Shown here in pieces: positions 1,811 to 50,032 of a stretch of DNA of 64,000 bases (within the stretch, counting starts at the first letter, position 1; each line of letters begins with the position of its first letter). The stretch comes from Lama glama (lineage: Eukaryota): assembly GCA_028534125.1 (NCBI GenBank), contig CM052816.1, positions 85,004,001 through 85,068,000 on the forward strand. The letters run 5' to 3'. A model generated the notes under the pieces. It made no database searches. It saw only the letters and a list, made by a program, of their open reading frames with translations, and had not been told where the DNA came from. A program made the position numbers and the translations under genes.

Positions 1811-4800
1811 AGAGCACTAAAACACTTCTTAGAGGAATCACCTGAAATATTCTCTACACTTGGAAATCAGCAAAGCTGTGAAGTTTCAAAATCTGACTCC
1901 AAAGAACACCCCCCAACCTTTTTTTTTTTTAACAATATATAAGAGCCTTGACTCGACCGTTTTTTTTTTAAAGCAAATGTGTCCTTAATATTGATGAATA
2001 ATTATTCAAGTACACCATTCTTCAATGATGCTTACTTTCCATGCCCTTGAAGTTATTTAAAAATTTAGTGCATTTATAAATTGAAGCAACATAAGAAAAC
2101 AAATTGCAAAACACTTCTTAAACAAATACTTTTATCTCTTAGCCATAAATGTCAATTTGTAAACACAAAATTTTAAATGGTATTTTTTTTGATATAATGG
2201 TGTGAAACTTGCTTACATGTGGTTTTAAAGGCTCATCTAAAATTATTTAGTATGACTGCATTCGGTTATATTTGAAACATAAAAGATAACATAGTATTTA
2301 GTTATATTGGTAACATAAAGAACAGTAAAAATTTCATTCATGCAGAACACCACAATAAACCATATGCATAGAAGAATCTATGCAATCTATTTTCAGGTTA
2401 AAAAGTTTCCATTTATTATGCAACCTCAGTATACATAATGCATGAATATTTGGCAGGTTGCTTAACTATGGTGACTCATGTATTTCATACTCTTATTTAA
2501 ATGAAATATAGTTGAAAATGTACAGGTGACATTGTAAACAAGAAAGATATCTTTAATTCTTAAGTTTGTATGAATAATGTGATAATCATCTGCCCCGTGA
2601 TTTATTTTTACCACTGATTGGAAGAATGGTTGACAGTGCTCTTAATTTAGGAGAGCTTCAACTTGTTGTGAACACTTCTATGTGGAAATCTTACTGAATA
2701 AACCAACACAAATATAAAATAAAAGACTACTCATTAGTAATTGATCCATTAATTGCATAATTATTTTAAAAAACATAGAAATAGTAACATCCTGAAATCT
2801 TCTAGCATTGGTTTGCACTAAATGCAAGAATCAGATTTGGGACTCATGCTGGTTGTCTGTAAGTGCTAAGAATGGAGTTACATTTTTAAAATATCTGCCT
2901 TGTCATGTTGCCATATTAGAGACAACTGAAAGCTTCTGATACAATATTGATGTTTTCAAAAGCCACTGTCTCCAGCAAATATCTCAGCTTGAGTTCCTTT
3001 CTGAGACTAAGAATCCTGTGTCTAAGCAGAAGACTACAGGGATGAGAGAGGACAGAGATGAAAGCACTGGCATGATCACTGGGAAAGGAGCTGAGATATG
3101 ATTCAGGGCTGACCTAGTGATATGACATCAGGCAAGCTATTTTATCTTATAATTTCTCAGACTCCTATTTGCAAAGAAGGGTTAATACCTGCACTGATTA
3201 CATGTATAAGATATAGATCATTTCTTTTCAACATAAGGTATTATTAACCTATCACTCTGACCTCCACATATAAGATAATTAACCAGGAGAAATTCAAAAG
3301 TGAAAATTATGCTTGCAAATAAAATAAAGAAGTATTATGAAAGTTAGCTGGTTCTGGTCCACAGTACAAGGTTAGAAACCCATGAGGCCAAATGTGTTTC
3401 AAATTAAGAACTTTTGGATTTCAAAAATCTAATTTGATGTATGTATTATACATTGATTATCATACCCCTTAACCAAATAAATATACAATATGAATGTAAT
3501 GAAACATAAATATTCATTAAAAGGGATAAATGAAGACAGTAAATACTTCATACCAGTTCAGGTCAATTTTGGGGTTTTTTTGTTGTTTTTTTCCATTTTT
3601 TTGATCTGAAAATAATCCAGTTATCAGAAAATTTTTATTTCACAATTTAAGTAAGTTAGAATTTTGTTTAATGTAGTAAACATGAGTGTATCACAGAGTA
3701 AAATATAAACTGTCAAATTTGAAAATTAAAGGCAGGGATTTTCAGGAAATACTGTACTTTTGGAGAAAAACTGAATTTCTAGGAGTTCCTGTTGGCTCTC
3801 TGTCCTTTAGATATGATTGTAATTGACCACTTTAAGAATGTGTGTTTCAGTGTTCAGTGTAAAGATCAAAATATGTCAGGGATAGGAAGAGTACTAAGGA
3901 CACACACTAGTCAATGTAAATAGCTACGTAAGGACACGAATAAATGTGACCTGGTGTGACATGGTTTGATGGAGAAGGGAAGAACAGGGAATTCCAGAAT
4001 CAGAAATAAGCTGGGTGATGTGGGGAAGGGATGGGATTGGACATGAGAGAGCTCACTAAGGGAAGTTTCTTATAAAAAGGGGAAAATGAAAAGGAAATGG
4101 AAATGCACTCCCCACCCTGCCACCACCACCCGTCTGCTGAGTCACAGTATTGTTAAGGCTTGACTTCATTTCTTGTGAAACTATCCTGTGACTTCTTAAA
4201 TTTGATTTAGAAGAAAAGTTATTGTCAAAGGACATAATGCAAAAATATGGCAATTTGTAATATATGAAATAGCTTTCAATTGTTCTTACAGAAAGATAAA
4301 AATAAATGTATCTTAAATGACGTACTAAGCAAGTTCAGATGATTTTAAGATTTACCATTTTCATTGATAGATAATAAATTATGTGTAATGATTTAGAAAT
4401 TTAAATGCATGCCAGAATCCCAGGTAATTTATGGAAGTAAATATTTAATACTTTGTTTTAAATTCTATTTTAGGAATTAAATACTATGGAATAAAATCAA
4501 GGTCTTCATTATTGTGTGAACAATTTTTTTATTTATCTTTCTACCTTCATGTATATATATATATATATCTACATATAGGTATAGTTATAAACATGTATCT
4601 TACATACTAAAAAGATTTGAAGAAAAACAAAATATCATTTGAATAACATATGGAAATGGAGTGGTATTTAAAGATATTTTCCTAAATATACAGTTATGAC
4701 CCAGTAATCTAGAAGACAAAGCACTTACTAATCTTTAAGCTTTAGTATCATTGAAAGGCACATTCTCTTGATTTATGAAATAGAATTTGACCTTAGCCCA

Positions 4801-7285: not shown

Positions 7286-8180
7286 ATTAATCTATGTACT
7301 TATGTTAATTTTAATGTGGCTTTAGTTAAAATACTGAAAGTATTACTACCAGCTATCATTTCGTTTTCAGTCCTAATTTCTCATTATGTGCCAGACCATT
7401 ATTTTTCATTATTTTGCATACTCAAAATAGCAATCAATTCATTGCCTAATAAACAGTTATATGTTGTAAATGCTTTATTTACAGTGGACAACCTAAACAT
7501 ATATTATTTGAGTGAAAAATATCGATTTTATATGTCCATCAACATATAGATAGGTATACCCATATTTAGATAGATAGGAAAGTTGATGATTAGATGCACT
7601 GATAAATTGCCTAAACTGGTGTTAGGAAAGAGGATTTAAATGCACGTCTTTTACTCTAAGGTGCTGCATGATCTTGCTGACTAAGCAATATTCCCAATGT
7701 CTCCGATAGGTTAGATACAAAAGCTAGAAATTGATGGGAAACAGAGAAAGGAGGTTGGGAATTATATTTGAGCCAAGAAAACATCATCATGCTCTAAATC
7801 CATGAGTCACTTCTTTCACCAGAGTCAAAAATTTTCAGTGATACATCTTGTTAATTACAAAAAGATTCTGATTGAAACCACAGATACATATTAGCACATG
7901 TACATACTGGTACTGCTTTCTAATTAATAAATGACTAAAAGATAGTTAAAATTATTGGTAATTCATGCTCGTTAAAAAATAGAAGAGGAAATTCACATTC
8001 ATATAAGATTTCATGATTGAAAGGAAAAATACTGAGATGAAAAGTAGAAATTCTTAGCACAATTCTTGGTAAGTAAGATGTTAATAATTGATAGCTAATA
8101 CATATTTTTGATCAGATGGATATTTGGAAGAAACAGTAATAAAAAAAAGTAACTAAAAAATAACAAGAAAACTCAGGAAG

Positions 8181-22729: not shown

Positions 22730-23229
22730 NNNNNNNNNNNNNNNNNNNNNNNNNNNNNNNNNNNNNNNNNNNNNNNNNNNNNNNNNNNNNNNNNNNNNNN
22801 NNNNNNNNNNNNNNNNNNNNNNNNNNNNNNNNNNNNNNNNNNNNNNNNNNNNNNNNNNNNNNNNNNNNNNNNNNNNNNNNNNNNNNNNNNNNNNNNNNNN
22901 NNNNNNNNNNNNNNNNNNNNNNNNNNNNNNNNNNNNNNNNNNNNNNNNNNNNNNNNNNNNNNNNNNNNNNNNNNNNNNNNNNNNNNNNNNNNNNNNNNNN
23001 NNNNNNNNNNNNNNNNNNNNNNNNNNNNNNNNNNNNNNNNNNNNNNNNNNNNNNNNNNNNNNNNNNNNNNNNNNNNNNNNNNNNNNNNNNNNNNNNNNNN
23101 NNNNNNNNNNNNNNNNNNNNNNNNNNNNNNNNNNNNNNNNNNNNNNNNNNNNNNNNNNNNNNNNNNNNNNNNNNNNNNNNNNNNNNNNNNNNNNNNNNNN
23201 NNNNNNNNNNNNNNNNNNNNNNNNNNNNN
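22730..23229. other. Assembly gap, exactly 500 N
   Basis: Run of N. Confidence 1.
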
Positions 23230-28793: not shown

Positions 28794-30852
28794 TATACTG
28801 AGATAAACATTTTCATGCTTAGTCCAAACATTTTTTATGAGTGTTTTCCTTGTTTCCATTCTAAATATATCATAATCTTAATAATTTATTATTTTATATA
28901 TACATTTCTGAAGTATTTTTAGTTTCCAAATTATGCTAATTTTGACTACTTACTGTTATTTAATTATTTCACGTTTACATACTAGTGTAACATCTTTAAT
29001 ACTCATAACCCATAGGTCTATAATTGTATATTTTAAAAATGCCCACCCTACTTTAAAACTGCCACTTTGGGAATATAAATGTGCAACACATAGCAATTTT
29101 CCCTAAAAGGCACTGTATGTAACAACTAACCAAAAATTTCTACCTAAAGAATTGGTCATATGTGTAGTTAAGGGAGAACCTTTGTGTGCATCTGCAGAGG
29201 AAATTGAGAGACACTGTGATTAGTCCAGCAATTACATAAACAAGGAGGGCAGGAGATGGAACAAGTATATTACCCAAAAGATCCCTTCATCTTCTGCAGA
29301 GCAAGAGTAGAGCTGTATTATTTCAGAATTCTCCTCCAGTTTTTTTTCTTAAGTTAATTAATTCTGCAATTGGAAGATGGAGGGTAGAACATATGCATGA
29401 ACAGCATCCATACACGGCAGTTCCTTAAACTGCAATGTGGAATTTAAAGAAAGAATTTTTTTTAATTTCATCCAAAATAGGAAAATTGATGATTAAATTT
29501 CATCTGTTCCTAATCTAACCGTTGTTTTTTCTTTCCTGTTTTTTTTTTCCCTCCCCTTGGAACATGCCATTCTGATTTGTTTCAGCATATTCTCTTGTAG
29601 AGTATGAGCTTTTCAGTTGAAATGATTTCTTTAGGTCTCGGTACTGTTTGCAAATGCACAGTTACCACCTTTACCCTTCCTCTCCTAAATCTTCACTGCC
29701 TGATCACATCTTAATCCAATCTTCTTGCTTCTCTCCTGGATCAGATAACATAAATGGATTTCTTAGAACACCCTTTGCATTTTATGATACTTTTGTTTTC
29801 CAAGATTGTAGTCATCAGAGGGTGGGATGAAAAACAAAATCAGTAAGAAAAAAAAATGCATCAATCTCTTTTTAAGTCAACGATGAAAGTTACAGTGAGA
29901 GCACAGAACAGCAGTAGCCAAAGTTTTATCAGCATTTACGCAGCAGCAGCAGCATCTTCTGGACAAAAAGAAAAAATGTGAAATGACAGCAGTGGGACTG
30001 TAATTAGTGGAAAATAGGTACTTGCTAATAAATCTTGGTTTCGTTTCAGGTCATTATTAGGAATGTAAATAAATAAAACCACAATTGGAAAGGATGTAAG
30101 TGTATAAGCTATGATAGTGTTTATAAATCTCTGTTTCTCTTTAATATGTACCCTGAGTATGATTTGAATTCTTAATTTTTTAAAAGGGGGTTATCCTAAA
30201 TAATTATGACATCAATTAGATCTTCTGTTATAAGTAATTATGTGCACTTTTTTTTAAACATCACATTGTGACAACTAAACAATCTTTTGCAACTGGCATT
30301 TTATCCTGCCACCTAAAGCAAATTTTGTGAATTAGCACTGTAGTCACCATGTACAATACGATCATGTGTAACAGTTGTTTTTAAATATAATAAGTTGACA
30401 TTTGTTTTCTTGTTAATCTCTTTCTTCATAATACAATAATTAAACTAAGATATACAGTAAGAACAAAACGAGCAGTTTTCTCAAGTCCTGTTTTCTTTGG
30501 CCAAGTATGTTCCCTCTTTATTTATGCCAGATCCATCAATGTGCAGAATTCAGAATTTTCTGCAGTTTATATGGATAGAACAATACGTGACAATGTGGAG
30601 TTTACTATATAATTTTTGTAGAATAATTCAATTCAACAAAACAGGTTTTCATCACATGCCCCTGGAAAATGATTTGAAAATTATATTAAGCATTAGATAT
30701 CTTATTTACCCTCTGACTTAAGCATCAGAGAAAACTTCCAGCTCACCCTCCAAAAATGGCATTTTTCTTTCCCTTGTTACTCAAAGTTCAAAGTCTTTCT
30801 TCCTTTGAGCAAAAAAATCAAGTTCTACAGTTCAGAATACTTAAAATATTTT

Positions 30853-30992
30853 CTCAGTAAAGGCCAATCTCTAGTTCAAGAAATTCTTGTACTAGCTGCT
30901 CAGTAAAGGCCAATCTCTAGTTCAAGAAATTCTTGTACTAGCTGCTCAGTAAAGGCCAATCTCTAGTTCAAGAAATTCTTGTACTAGCTGCT
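30853..30992. repeat. 3 x 46-bp perfect tandem repeat
   Basis: CTCAGTAAAGGCCAATCTCTAGTTCAAGAAATTCTTGTACTAGCTG starting at 30853, 30899 and 30945. Confidence 0.98.
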
Positions 30993-31047
30993 TAGAGAAT
31001 AAAGTAGTCTCCACATGAATACATACATTAATTTCTAGCCTCTCTAA

Positions 31048-41869: not shown

Positions 41870-42413
41870 TTTTTAAAATTTTATTTTTCATTGAAGAATA
41901 GTTGATTTACAATGTTTCAGGTGTATAGCAAAGTGATTCAGTTATACACACATATATATATTCATGTATTCTTTTTCAGATTCTTTTCTATCATAAGCTA
42001 TTATAAGATATTAATATAATTCCTTGTGCTATATCATGTTATTGTAAGATATTAATATAATTCTATCATAAGTTATTATAAGATATTAATATAATTCCTT
42101 GTACTATACAGTAGTTCCTTGTTGTTTATCCATTTTGTATGTAGTAGTGTGTATCTGTTAATCCCAAATTCCAAATTTATCCCTCCCTCACATTTCCCCT
42201 TTGGTAATCATAAGTTTGTTTTCTATGTCTGTGAATCTATTTCTGGTTTGTAAATAAGTTCATTTGTATCTTTTCTTTTAGATTCCACATATAAATGAGA
42301 TCATATATTTGTCCTTGTCTGACTCACTTCACTTAGCATGATGATCCCTACATCCATCCATGTTGCTGCTAATGGCATTATTCCATTATGTTTTATGGCA
42401 GAGTAATAGTCAT

Positions 42414-42478
<65 letters not shown>

Positions 42479-42657
42479 ATTATATATATTTTTCATCCAG
42501 TCATCTGTCCATGGACATTGAAGTTGCTTCCATGTCTTGGCTATTGTAAATAGTATTGCTATGAACAATGGGGTGCATGTGTCTTTTCTAGTTAGAGTAT
42601 TCTCAGGATAAATGTCCAGGAGTGGGATTGCTGGATCATATGGTAAGTTTATTTTTA
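41870..42657 (-). mobile_element. 5'-truncated L1 3' end, cetartiodactyl type
   Basis: attgaagaatagttgatttacaatgtttcaggtgtatagcaaagtgattcagttatac...ttagattccacatataa...catgtcttggctattgtaaatagt...gggattgctggatcatatggta. Confidence 0.92.
42420..42478. repeat. (GT)n microsatellite within L1
   Basis: Directly visible, one interruption. Confidence 0.95.
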
Positions 42658-43567
42658 GGGGAAGAAAATGCTTTCTTAAAAGAAATGGATTTGTAAATGG
42701 ATTTTATAGAAATAAAAGGACAAGCACTTCAAAATTATTTAATGAATAAATGAATAATTTGCACGGTGTTACTAGCAAGTATCTTGATATTCCAGGTATT
42801 GTAACTTTTTTAGATTCTTATACAAGGAATTTAACATCAATGGATCTAAGTTGTTAAATGAACTGTAATGGTATTTTCTACAAATGAGAATTAAAAACAT
42901 AGAATATAAGCATTCTTGGTTCTATGTAGCCACTGCTATAGTCCAAATATTTTAAACACTAAATATGATACTTTTGCATGACATTGGTATACTTAATAAA
43001 AAGATAGCTTTACTATTTATCTAATAAGTAGGTGAATATCAAACATAATCAGGCATTTCTGAAATGTAAAGTTGATTGCTGGGTTTATAGTTAACCATGT
43101 TTTAATTTACATTTTATTTTTGGCACATATAACAGTCTATAATCTTGGATACTGCATACAGACTTTTGAATCTCTTTTTCCTCATTTATAATAGTATAAG
43201 ATGACATGGAAAATAGATATGAGAGAAGAGATTTGGGAGAGGAAAGGAAGGTATTTCAGAAATAAATGAGGGACCTAGAACTTAAACTTACACAAACATG
43301 AACCCATTGCTTTATAAAACTTGATCAATAATATATCTTTATCCTAGTTGATGAGGGGCCTCAAGGGAAAAATTCTATGATGGAAATCACCAGGTAAATT
43401 CATTTTAGCAGAGGATATAAATATGCTCTAAGATTGATATAATTTTTGATTGTAACCTGAGTCAAGTTTTGAAAAGCAGAATTAAAAGTCCTCCTAGAGG
43501 AACACACACTTTTCTTTAAATTGTGGGTGGTGGGCACACAAAAGGACTTTCAGGTAAGATAGAACAC

Positions 43568-46045: not shown

Positions 46046-46310
46046 TATAATTGTGATTGTTTTCAAACTATCCACCTATTAATGAATCTCACCATGTTAA
46101 AGATCATCAAACACACAGACACACTCAAATGGCTTTATAGCAGCTAGAAAATAAGTTATAGATTATATGCATCTATTTCAGTTTAAAATATTAAGAGACT
46201 TTGCCAGTACTTAGAGTGACAGAAAAGAGGATCAAAATGAATACACATAAGGATACATTTTTTGCATAAGAATAATAAATAGAAGGTAAACCTTAAAATT
46301 AGACCATTAG

Positions 46311-46902
46311 TGTGGGAGCCCATGATTGGGTTAACAAATTGTAACAGATCCACGCTGCTTATCTCCTTAAAGAAGATTGCTTAGTAACTGCCTTGAGGTT
46401 TTAACAATGACCCAGGCCCCCCGCTATAAACGCTGGGCGTGCCTGCTGTTAGTCTTCTATCCCCAAAACAGCCTTGGGCTGGAATGGTTAACAACTTACA
46501 AAAAGCTGCAGACTCAGAAGTGAGAAGGCTGGTTAGCCAATGATGGGTAAGATCCCCTGAGGGGCGCAACCTAAGACAGGCACAGCTGTCTGAGTCCAAG
46601 TTGTTAAACTGCTGATTCTCATACGTTCCGCCCTGATAAGCTGAAAGGGGCAACATGATTCACCAGAAAGGGTCTTCTGATCTTGAGCCAAACACCAACA
46701 ATAAACAAAGCCTTTGTACTCATTGTGATCCCACCCTGTCCTTCCCTAAATTTCGGCATTCCTCCTTTGACTGTACTCAGTAAATATGAGAGATTTGAGA
46801 GGCTCCTGGAGTTGGCTCCCGATTCCCACGTTCTCTTGACTTTTCCTCAGTCTTGAGTAATTCATTCCATCTCGGTGGGACTTCTGCCGGCCAGAACCCA
46901 CA
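46311..46902 (+). mobile_element. Solo ERV LTR, class II (betaretrovirus-like), 6-bp TSD
   Basis: Perfect inverted ends TGTGGG...CCCACA; CATTAG duplicated at 46305-46310 and 46903-46908; 592 bp; retains CpGs; orientation inferred from the CTE-like motif. Confidence 0.92.
46528..46586 (+). promoter_or_regulatory. CTE-like (NXF1/TAP-binding) RNA export element, single unit
   Basis: GCCAATGATGGGTAA...AACCTAAGACAGGC matches the conserved blocks of the MPMV/SRV CTE as I recall them (GCCAATGACGGGTAA...AACCTAAGACAGG); apical hairpin CCCC-TGA-GGGG; basal GCTG/CAGC pairing. Confidence 0.8.
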
Positions 46903-46959
46903 CATTAGAACATTTAGTGTAATAAAAATCAGTGACATAAACATAGAGAAAATAATAGG

Positions 46960-49350
46960 ACATATATTTATTGCAGAAATTAGAAGAACATGTTAGGAAA
47001 ATCTGCATTGCAAATTAAATACACTCTGAAAAATTAAAAAGCTGAACTATAAGAAAAATAAATTAATGAAAATAAAATAATAAAATTTCATGAAAATGAC
47101 CCTGACTAAATAAACTTAGTAATAAAATTTCCATAGAAAAATATGTAACAGAGAGAGATAAATAGTTAACCAATAGACCAAATGAGAGATATACTTTACA
47201 AATGCAAGGGAAAAAAATAAAGATGGTAAGAAACAATGACAGGTATGAATAATTCAAAGCAGACATAAATCTATGGATAACCAAAACCCCTGAAGTAAAA
47301 AAATGACAAAGTAGTACAAATATTGGTAAAATAAAACTCAATTCTTGAACTAAAAACTAATCAGAAAACATGTTTAGAGGATTCATGTTCTTGAGCTGAA
47401 GAGGGAATCAAAGACATATAGTGGACTTAAAAAAATTCAAGAGTTAAGGAAATGTCTAAGAACTTTAGCAACATATGGACTGAAATTTTATTAGTGGGAT
47501 CTGTGAGAGATCACACGCTGTTTAGTATATTGCCTTACAAATTCTGCAAACTATACATTACACTTTAAAAACTGAGCCATTTTCCATGTTCACTATTATC
47601 AAATAACTGTAGCCAAAAAATAATCCCAATGATAACTAGAAGAGCAAATGAAACCTGAACAACAACAACTACAACAACAAATGAAAACCTGCTGTTTGAA
47701 GATGTATCAGATCTGCTGGGGCAGCCGGGACTTGAAGGGCCAGATGCTTCATTTGTATTAGGTAAGCTCAATTTCCTACATTTGCTTTATTTTAACCTCA
47801 GTATTTGCTGATACGTGGCTTGGGGCAAAAGTTTAAGAAGCCTGACATAATAGCGTTAATAAATGAAGTGAAAGCAGTTCTTTTGATAATCTCACGGAAG
47901 TGTTGCCACAGAAATTGCATACCAGGGTTACAAAAGCAATCAGGAATTCTGGGAAAAAAAGGAGCTAAACAAATGTGAGCTTCACAGTCAGCTCTGATTT
48001 TCTTTTATAAGCTGTATTAGTGAATTTTTGTGGCAGCCACAGAGCACTGAGGCAATGTAAAATCTAAGTTCTACATCTGGCAAGTATAAACTGTAAGCAT
48101 CACACTTGGCTCTAAGTTGACAGAATGCTATATTTACAGACCAGGATAAAGCTGAAGCTGACTGAGGTGTACTTGGTCTACAATCTGCCTTGATTAGGTA
48201 CAGATCCGGATTAACCTGAAGCCATCTATGTCCAGGTGATTATCAGAAGATAAAGTGAATCCTTTACTAGGGAGGAGCAACATTCAGAACTTCCTCACTT
48301 TTTCAAATGAAATATCCAGCATTCACTAAAAACATTAACTAGCAGGTATCTTTGTTTAATAGCAACTCAGTAACTAATTAAAAATTTATAGAAGTGCAAG
48401 GGATCAAAATGTAGTTAGAAATGGTTTTTATTGTGGGACCTAAACTACAAAAATGCCAAGAGTTACCATTAGAGCTCAGTAAGTAAGACACTGTGCTATT
48501 GCTGTAAGAGAAGACTACGGACCAAAGGAATGGTATATTAAATTCAAAACAGACCTACACAAGGACACTTGATAAAAATGACTTTACAGGATAGTGAATA
48601 AAAGAAGATTTTTTAATAAATAATGCTGGGTCAAATAACCACAGAAAACACAGTTATACAATAAGTCCTCAAGAAGAATGGAAAACAGACTGAGAACATA
48701 GACACTACTCAGACCCAACAAAATGGCTTAATTGAAGAAGGAAACACTTAATAATCAGTACTGGTAAAAGTCTAAAGTAATTGGAACCCTCTTACATGGC
48801 TGGTGAGAGTATAAGTTGGGACAATTACTTTGGAAAAGTACTTGACAGTACTTTCAAAAACTGAACATAGGCATACCTCGTGATTCATCTACATACTTAC
48901 CCAAAAGAAATGTGTACAGTTTACTAACAAGATATGCACAAGCATGTTTATAGCAACATAATTCATAAGGGGAAAATGAAATCAGCTCAAATATTTATTA
49001 ATTATAGTGCATTAATATGGAATCCAATTATAAATTATAACTACATACAAGAGCTAGGTAAATCTAAAAAAAAAAAAAAAGAATTAGTGAAAGAAGTCAG
49101 GTACCAGACAGAAACAAACATAAAGTGTGATTCCATTTACACAAAGTTTGAAAATAGAAAAACTTAGTTAAGAAGTCAGATTGTTGGTTATTCTTCAATC
49201 TAATAATGATTACAGTGGGGCTCAAGGGAGGATTTGAATATTGGTAATGCTTTATATCTTGATTAAGATGCTGTGTTAGAGGTGAGTTCACTTTGAAACA
49301 ATATTATAGAGCTGGACGTTTAATATATGTTCAAAGTATTTTCCAAATTG
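46960..49350 (+). mobile_element. Ancient L1 (L1MD/ME-like) fragments ending in a 3' UTR
   Basis: A-rich strand; aattggaaccctcttacatggctggtgagagtataagttgggacaattactttggaaaa, acccaaaagaaatg, tgtgattccatttac, ttggtaatgctttatatcttgatt. The 5' boundary is uncertain. Confidence 0.65.
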
Positions 49351-49532: not shown

Positions 49533-50032
49533 NNNNNNNNNNNNNNNNNNNNNNNNNNNNNNNNNNNNNNNNNNNNNNNNNNNNNNNNNNNNNNNNNNNN
49601 NNNNNNNNNNNNNNNNNNNNNNNNNNNNNNNNNNNNNNNNNNNNNNNNNNNNNNNNNNNNNNNNNNNNNNNNNNNNNNNNNNNNNNNNNNNNNNNNNNNN
49701 NNNNNNNNNNNNNNNNNNNNNNNNNNNNNNNNNNNNNNNNNNNNNNNNNNNNNNNNNNNNNNNNNNNNNNNNNNNNNNNNNNNNNNNNNNNNNNNNNNNN
49801 NNNNNNNNNNNNNNNNNNNNNNNNNNNNNNNNNNNNNNNNNNNNNNNNNNNNNNNNNNNNNNNNNNNNNNNNNNNNNNNNNNNNNNNNNNNNNNNNNNNN
49901 NNNNNNNNNNNNNNNNNNNNNNNNNNNNNNNNNNNNNNNNNNNNNNNNNNNNNNNNNNNNNNNNNNNNNNNNNNNNNNNNNNNNNNNNNNNNNNNNNNNN
50001 NNNNNNNNNNNNNNNNNNNNNNNNNNNNNNNN
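49533..50032. other. Assembly gap, exactly 500 N
   Basis: Run of N. Confidence 1.

Follow-up and report, generated by a model that had tools for sequence, protein, structure and literature searches.

A single CTE unit homologous to that of Mason-Pfizer monkey virus inside a class II-like solo LTR of Lama glama

Homology and anatomy of the unit

Sequence comparison confirmed that a 59-nt unit at positions 46528-46586 (plus strand) of the Lama glama window is a true homologue of the core of the MPMV/SRV constitutive transport element (CTE). The window is the whole 64,000-nt stretch analysed (contig CM052816.1, positions 85,004,001 to 85,068,000), and the unit lies within a solo LTR. The best explanation, which we regard as a likely one, is that an old class II ERV family carried a true one-loop CTE in its LTR, that the provirus used it and that it is now a passenger. 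The 59 letters given in the initial annotation are present exactly as it listed them, and they begin 218 nt inside the LTR, close to the 220 bp that it estimated.

The unit is bounded by a 4-bp outer stem (46528-46531 with 46583-46586), and its core of 46 nt corresponds to LTR nt 226-271. The 5' conserved block (46536-46551) consists of a closing triplet (46536-46538), a loop strand (46539-46544) and a stem strand (46545-46548), and overlaps a CCAAT box (46537-46541). The 3' conserved block (46568-46581) contains the second stem strand (46569-46572), the AAGACA loop strand (46573-46578) and the second closing triplet (46579-46581). An apical hairpin of 4 bp with a 3-nt loop is located at 46554-46564. 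All these elements are on the plus strand.

A viral record of 8557 nt (L099) was taken as the MPMV record, since its units, at nt 7411-7534, fall inside the interval 7388-7549 given for the MPMV CTE in PMC6478720. Alignment to the MPMV blocks, which had been proposed as a check, gave 15/16 identical letters between the 5' block and unit 1 of L099, and 14/14 between the 3' block and unit 2. Chance resemblance in an ordinary LTR is therefore extremely improbable: with 29 of the 30 block letters identical to MPMV, the number of such joint matches expected by chance is 1e-11 to 1e-10 in the window and less than 1e-5 per 3-Gb genome. A pattern of 22 letters from both blocks had a single match in the 596 Gb of prokaryote sequence scanned, and was present in 2 viral records and in 15 metagenome loci. 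In favour of chance it may be said that the fold is no stabler than those of shuffled sequences (see below), and that chance-looking matches to the pattern do occur in very large collections (L105/L108 and L116).

The next-best block matches elsewhere in the LTR are 10/16 and 9/14, so that one unit only is present, as the initial annotation had proposed, and it is self-contained (closing triplet self-pairing 3/3, stem 4/4). In common with type D CTEs, the unit has a 6x6 internal loop with AAGACA between closing helices of 3 bp (3/3) and 4 bp (4/4), but it has neither the two-fold symmetric pair of units nor the position between env and the polypurine tract. In common with single-loop CTEs of the NXF1-intron type, it has one self-closing unit and a short apical hairpin; it is located, however, in an LTR and not in NXF intron 10, and no NXF-like ORF was seen. 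By anatomy the unit resembles a single-loop CTE, whereas by position it belongs neither to the two-unit type D class nor to the NXF1-intron class.

The blocks might also have been retained for some other role, the 5' block serving as a U3 CCAAT box or as a U1-binding or splice-donor site while the export loop is vestigial. The CCAAT at 46537 stands in a context that presumably fits the NF-Y consensus. There is also a 5' splice-site-like motif at 46544-46552 (plus strand, cut between 46546 and 46547) that agrees with the donor consensus at 6/9 positions, and in PMC4338338 the loop is said to have a conserved 5' splice site as its neighbour. Such a role would, however, leave unexplained the 14/14 match of the 3' block and its exact complementarity to the 5' block, and two further sites of the LTR also score 6/9 as donors; we consider this explanation quite improbable.

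The LTR and its family

The solo LTR (46311-46902, plus strand, 592 bp) begins with TG at 46311, ends with CA at 46902, and is flanked on both sides by CATTAG, a perfect 6-bp target-site duplication (46305-46310 and 46903-46908). Its GC content is 47.6%, against about 31% for the window. A target duplication of 6 bp is the length typical of class II elements. This duplication and the layout of the 3' end point to an old class II (ERV-K/beta-like) family, and the earlier description of a betaretrovirus-like solo LTR is supported, in the sense of a class II-like solo LTR, by the TG..CA ends, the duplication and the many-copy contigs.

Contigs from read runs of related species were aligned over 46161-47060 (X1, X4 and X15 denote contig runs and X24 a raw RNA run). 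These four were taken from 20 read runs that were listed as matching, the greatest shared word fraction being 0.45. Two DNA runs, from two organisms, covered the LTR region with 1341 and 983 contigs, and an RNA run covered it with 326; in each of the three, family contigs extend over the unit. Contig depth, which here and throughout is not equivalent to copy number, ends abruptly at both LTR boundaries, and at 46311 there are 34, 32 and 19 contigs with loose ends whose flanks are unrelated (agreement 0.38-0.49). The stop in depth at the LTR ends, together with the mixed loose ends, indicates a solo LTR of a many-copy family; many copies, sharp ends and unrelated sites were found in both DNA runs, and the family occurs in related species, probably camelids. 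Zero depth over the flanks does not mean that the locus is absent, as the contigs are filtered. No internal proviral sequence was found among the contig rows listed. According to the available part of PMC8605555, which does not mention export, a camelid genome contains 410-679 ERV2 elements.

In X1, the majority of the depth departs from the window copy at 32 of the 40 positions listed (of 84), or at least 5.4% of the LTR. The window copy looks decayed and is most likely a passenger at its locus. A segment of 248 nt that holds the CTE unit (46453-46700, plus strand) is skipped or replaced in three family-like contigs, two in X4 and one in X15, and four further contigs depart from the LTR directly after 46586. 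The segment is therefore perhaps a module that was gained or lost, which points to sister forms of the LTR that either have or lack the CTE unit.

An Rfam scan of the window gave no hit at the gathering score, two hits near the LTR being at chance level. The pattern of the LTR start had 0 matches in viral contigs and none in plasmids, and the 15 metagenome CTE loci did not match the LTR outside the CTE at E<0.1. A purine run at 46645-46650 was considered as a remnant of a polypurine tract and rejected, since the majority of contig depth differs there.

Predicted folding and conservation

Folded alone, the 59-nt unit gives the proposed hairpin with a minimum free energy of -17.2 kcal/mol. In a shuffle test, 62 of 200 shuffled sequences were equally stable (z -0.37), so the evidence for the unit rests on its letters and not on its folding energy. 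The folding proposed earlier thus holds for the isolated unit, but the hairpin is no stabler than shuffles and is displaced in its own flanks: the predicted probability of the core falls from 0.87 without flanks to 0.77 with 8 nt, 0.29 with 25 nt and 0.001-0.011 with 45-200 nt of flank. These are protein-free predictions for the window copy, whose fold is not predicted to persist with flanks of at least 45 nt. The cores of the single-unit comparators L114 and L107 have a probability of about 0.87 in their flanks, and that of L114 holds at 200 nt.

A fold constrained to contain the core adds a putative lower helix, with arms at 46511-46517 and 46590-46596 (plus strand), which would extend the hairpin beyond the 59 nt. 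There are 0 listed variants in either arm, which is not significant. An outer helix of 46490-46497 with 46598-46605 was rejected as a feature of the family, since the majority of contig depth differs from it at 46495.

Variation in the contigs does not demonstrate extra conservation of the unit. Within 46528-46586, 3 variants were observed against 4.0 expected, as counted on the 40 rows listed of 84, which are mostly the window copy's own changes; the window copy departs from the majority of depth at 46558 and 46565. By contig depth, the three bins across the unit take ranks 1-3 among 20 in the RNA run and ranks 3-7 among 20 in the two DNA runs, which is a weak sign. The sole core difference from MPMV is at 46544, a CpG site, where the MPMV letter is found in 58-74% of contig depth; some natural units of the rodent-ERV type share the letter of the window copy at this position.

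Position of the unit in U3 or R

Four plus-strand features bear on the division of the LTR. A TATAAA in a first A-rich module (46425-46430) is a candidate TATA box that, if used, would place the unit in R. An AATAAA in a second A-rich module (46700-46705) is a candidate TATA-like element or alternative poly(A) signal. The likely poly(A) signal is located at 46779-46784, where the window copy has AGTAAA and 76-100% of contig depth has the canonical hexamer, and downstream of it, at 46787-46846, come a predicted stem-loop and a T-rich tract in the order known from R regions of the HML type. Whether the unit belongs to U3 or to R, both candidate poly(A) signals (46700 and 46779) are downstream of it.

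The layout of the 3' end (AATAAA, stem-loop, T-rich tract) fits the description of HML LTRs in PMC2664473, in which poly(A) addition takes place 69 or 84 nt downstream and the TATA box is not conserved; transcription starts of the HML type map near the AATAAA (PMC3598470). The distant poly(A) site is suggested here by an A-run near 46846 in the loose ends of five RNA contigs, a hint only, since DNA contigs read on there. The HML-like 3' end favours U3, as had been proposed earlier, and we consider this placement probable, although a TATAAA upstream of the unit, at 46425, speaks against such a placement.

If transcription instead started about 30 nt past this TATAAA, the unit would be in R, and RNAs initiated in the LTR would carry the CTE in their leader. 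Besides the canonical TATAAA itself, the ratio of RNA to DNA depth fits such a start, being 0.15-0.8 in most bins before 46460, 1.2-2.5 at 46521-46670 and 0.4-0.7 at 46701-46790, just past the AATAAA. The ratio climbs again, however, at 46821-46902, contig depth cannot reveal where transcripts start or end, and the 3' end matches the HML layout (PMC2664473, PMC3598470). Placement in R is therefore distinctly the less likely of the two, but it deserves some weight.

Possible functions in the provirus and in the host

In the original provirus, the copy of the unit in the 3' LTR would have been transcribed near the 3' end of the unspliced and env RNAs. The transcribed unit would fold into the 6x6 internal loop and bind one NXF1:NXT1, and this binding might provide a modest Rev-independent export of viral RNA, the same job as that of the two-loop CTE of MPMV, which is located just before the polypurine tract. 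Each lobe of the CTE binds NXF1:NXT1 independently, and the dimer favours two lobes (PMC4330390). In reporters, one NXF1 loop gave 3-fold and two loops gave 33-fold activity (PMC6478720), and a lone loop from zebrafish showed weak activity when no NXF1/NXT1 was added (PMC4338338). Export elements borne by LTRs have a precedent in the RcRE in U3 of HML-2 and in the LTR-derived MER11 element (PMC11379458). Solo LTRs would inherit the unit passively through recombination and retain it because it sits in the LTR, and at the window locus it would be a decaying passenger.

The initial annotation went further and viewed every solo LTR of the family as a portable export signal. According to this explanation, sense-oriented solo LTRs would equip host introns or 3' ends with a working CTE and, after it, a poly(A) signal, and intron-retaining RNAs would be exported. 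The unit does precede both A-rich hexamers, so that a read-through RNA ending in the LTR would include it; family sequence is present in the RNA run (326 contigs), with a peak of depth over the unit; and the single loop of the NXF1 intron serves its own gene in this way (PMC4338338). A similar idea was already raised for another ERV element (PMC11379458).

The findings at the locus do not bear this extension out. The window showed no recognisable host gene: none of the 22 gap-free ORFs of at least 90 aa had a Pfam family above cut-off, a search that would miss small exons. RNA contig depth across the flanks is nil beyond the bin that touches the LTR start. The contigs carry no strand information, and of the 12.8 million records of the raw RNA run X24, 3 reads fell on the region, which is not enough to infer strand or ends. 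The predicted fold of the window copy is displaced in its context, and one loop is weak in the published reporters (PMC6478720, PMC4338338). A role of the solo LTRs in the export of host RNAs is thus unlikely.

In the mostly open-access literature searched, no account of an MPMV-type CTE lying within an LTR was found. In PMC4338338, as far as its available text goes, no sequence homologues of the CTE are reported in host genes beyond the NXF family, and it is hypothesised that the virus captured one cellular loop and then duplicated it. A bolder proposal would be that the present family represents a lineage with a single unduplicated NXF1-type CTE in its LTR, an intermediate between capture and duplication, which seeded many cassettes of loop plus poly(A) signal, some of them still exporting intron-retaining host RNAs; we hold this to be rather improbable.

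A retroviral family with one loop would be either the intermediate between capture and duplication or its reversal. Its many natural copies could show which letters of the loop are under selection and whether one loop suffices for a retrovirus. The location matters as well: when a provirus is reduced to a solo copy, the LTR is what remains of it, and a comparison of sense with antisense copies can for this reason test whether host genes receive export signals from ERVs.

Other features of the window

A GC-rich region at about 690-1810 resembles, by eye, nested ERV/LTR pieces; it is CpG-rich near 1380-1640 and has an AATAAA near 1702. A tandem repeat of 46 nt in three copies is located at 30836-30995, and a short 41/34-nt duplication at 41986-42108. 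Two assembly gaps of exactly 500 N each lie at 22730-23229 and 49533-50032. A decayed C-terminal fragment of L1 ORF2 is present on the minus strand at 42482-42658, the sole named protein among its best 120 matches being a 75% identical one from Camelus dromedarius. The search for a tRNA-type SINE gave none, and MIRs are described as nearly all of the camelid SINEs (PMC8605555).

Comparison with known transport elements

Of the 15 metagenome loci, 11 were related and ERV-like, two (L114 and L107) were single units, and the remaining two were probably matches by chance. The 11 ERV-like loci (e.g. L102 and L115) we take to be rodent and IAP-like, and L100 and L117 are presumably of type D. Two identical matches (L105/L108), with a closing triplet of 1/3, and the bacterial match L116 were treated as chance, as were 98 stretches of viral contigs from a 14-letter scan; of five sequence-string matches in papers, the two in PMC7175933 and PMC6079369, in so far as the available text shows, are unrelated.

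Closing pairs were compared for 15 sources, a set that did not include L109, L111 and L112. In all 8 complete two-unit loci tested, a lone unit has 1-2 of 3 closing pairs, and cross-pairing between the units gives 3/3 at both loops. As the letter pairs differ and 3/3 is kept across loci, the closing triplet covaries and its geometry is diagnostic. The triplets of L102, L103, L106, L110 and L115 are unlike those of MPMV and yet pair 3/3 across units, and thereby test the MPMV fold by natural covariation. In the window unit, L114 and L107 the triplet self-pairs 3/3; the bacterial chance match L116 self-closes 3/3 too, and closure alone is therefore no proof. L101, L104, L109, L111, L112 and L113 have one complete unit each, with self-closure of 2/3, and most of them have a second 5' block.

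The unit of L114 is preceded by two exons that are similar to successive parts of human NXF1 (E 0.0017 and 0.00057), and for this reason L114 was used as a natural NXF1-intron comparator. Its self-closing unit is at 4358-4406 in an intron; the introns are short, and the NXF1-like exons are about 40-50% identical to human. The source of L114 may be non-vertebrate, which is a guess. The element is said to be found only in mammals and fish in the available text of PMC4338338, and no invertebrate case of an NXF1-type CTE was found in the literature searched. L107 has a single self-closing unit on the minus strand (568-618), which folds stably and is flanked by a long helix; its contig is 2.4 kb long, and neither exon nor LTR was recognised in it by eye.

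The window unit shares with the MPMV/type D CTE both blocks and the 6x6 loop with AAGACA, and in the core flanks 5-6 of 8 letters upstream and 3-4 of 5 downstream. It differs in being one self-closing unit, whereas the type D element has two cross-paired units, and in lying inside the LTR, whereas the MPMV CTE (L099) is outside the LTR, its end about 40 nt short of the polypurine tract. The rodent-type ERV CTEs carry these blocks too, in an endogenous retrovirus, but they have two units, and in L102 the CTE, also outside the LTR, stops 28 nt short of a run that resembles a polypurine tract.

The CTE of NXF1 intron 10, known from human to fish (PMC4338338) and represented here by L114, also has one loop, a self-closing triplet and a short apical hairpin. 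It differs in belonging to a single-copy host gene and, in L114, in a fold that is kept in 200 nt of flank (0.87). The core of the window unit measures 46 nt, against 49-51 nt in the single-unit comparators, and its flanks agree with those of L114 at 1/8 and 0/5 letters. The likeness of the flanks, in a comparison that covered type D and L114, suggests a kinship with the outer stem of type D. As to origin, capture from NXF1 and loss of half of a two-unit CTE would both be compatible with the letters of the unit.

Among export elements of class II LTRs, the RcRE of HML-2 is also copied along with the LTR, in its U3, but it requires the viral Rec (PMC11379458). The element known as MER11, which stems from the LTR of HML-8, is likewise of class II LTR origin, although it is about 1 kb long and has no homology to the MPMV loop (PMC11379458). 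Bat beta-ERVs of group VII carry Tap-binding motifs, the stretch searched for them reaching as far as the 3' LTR's poly(A) signal, so that elements borne by the LTR may occur there; the LTR lengths listed for this group, 361-480 and 1265 nt, include none near the 592 nt of the LTR described here (PMC3621094).
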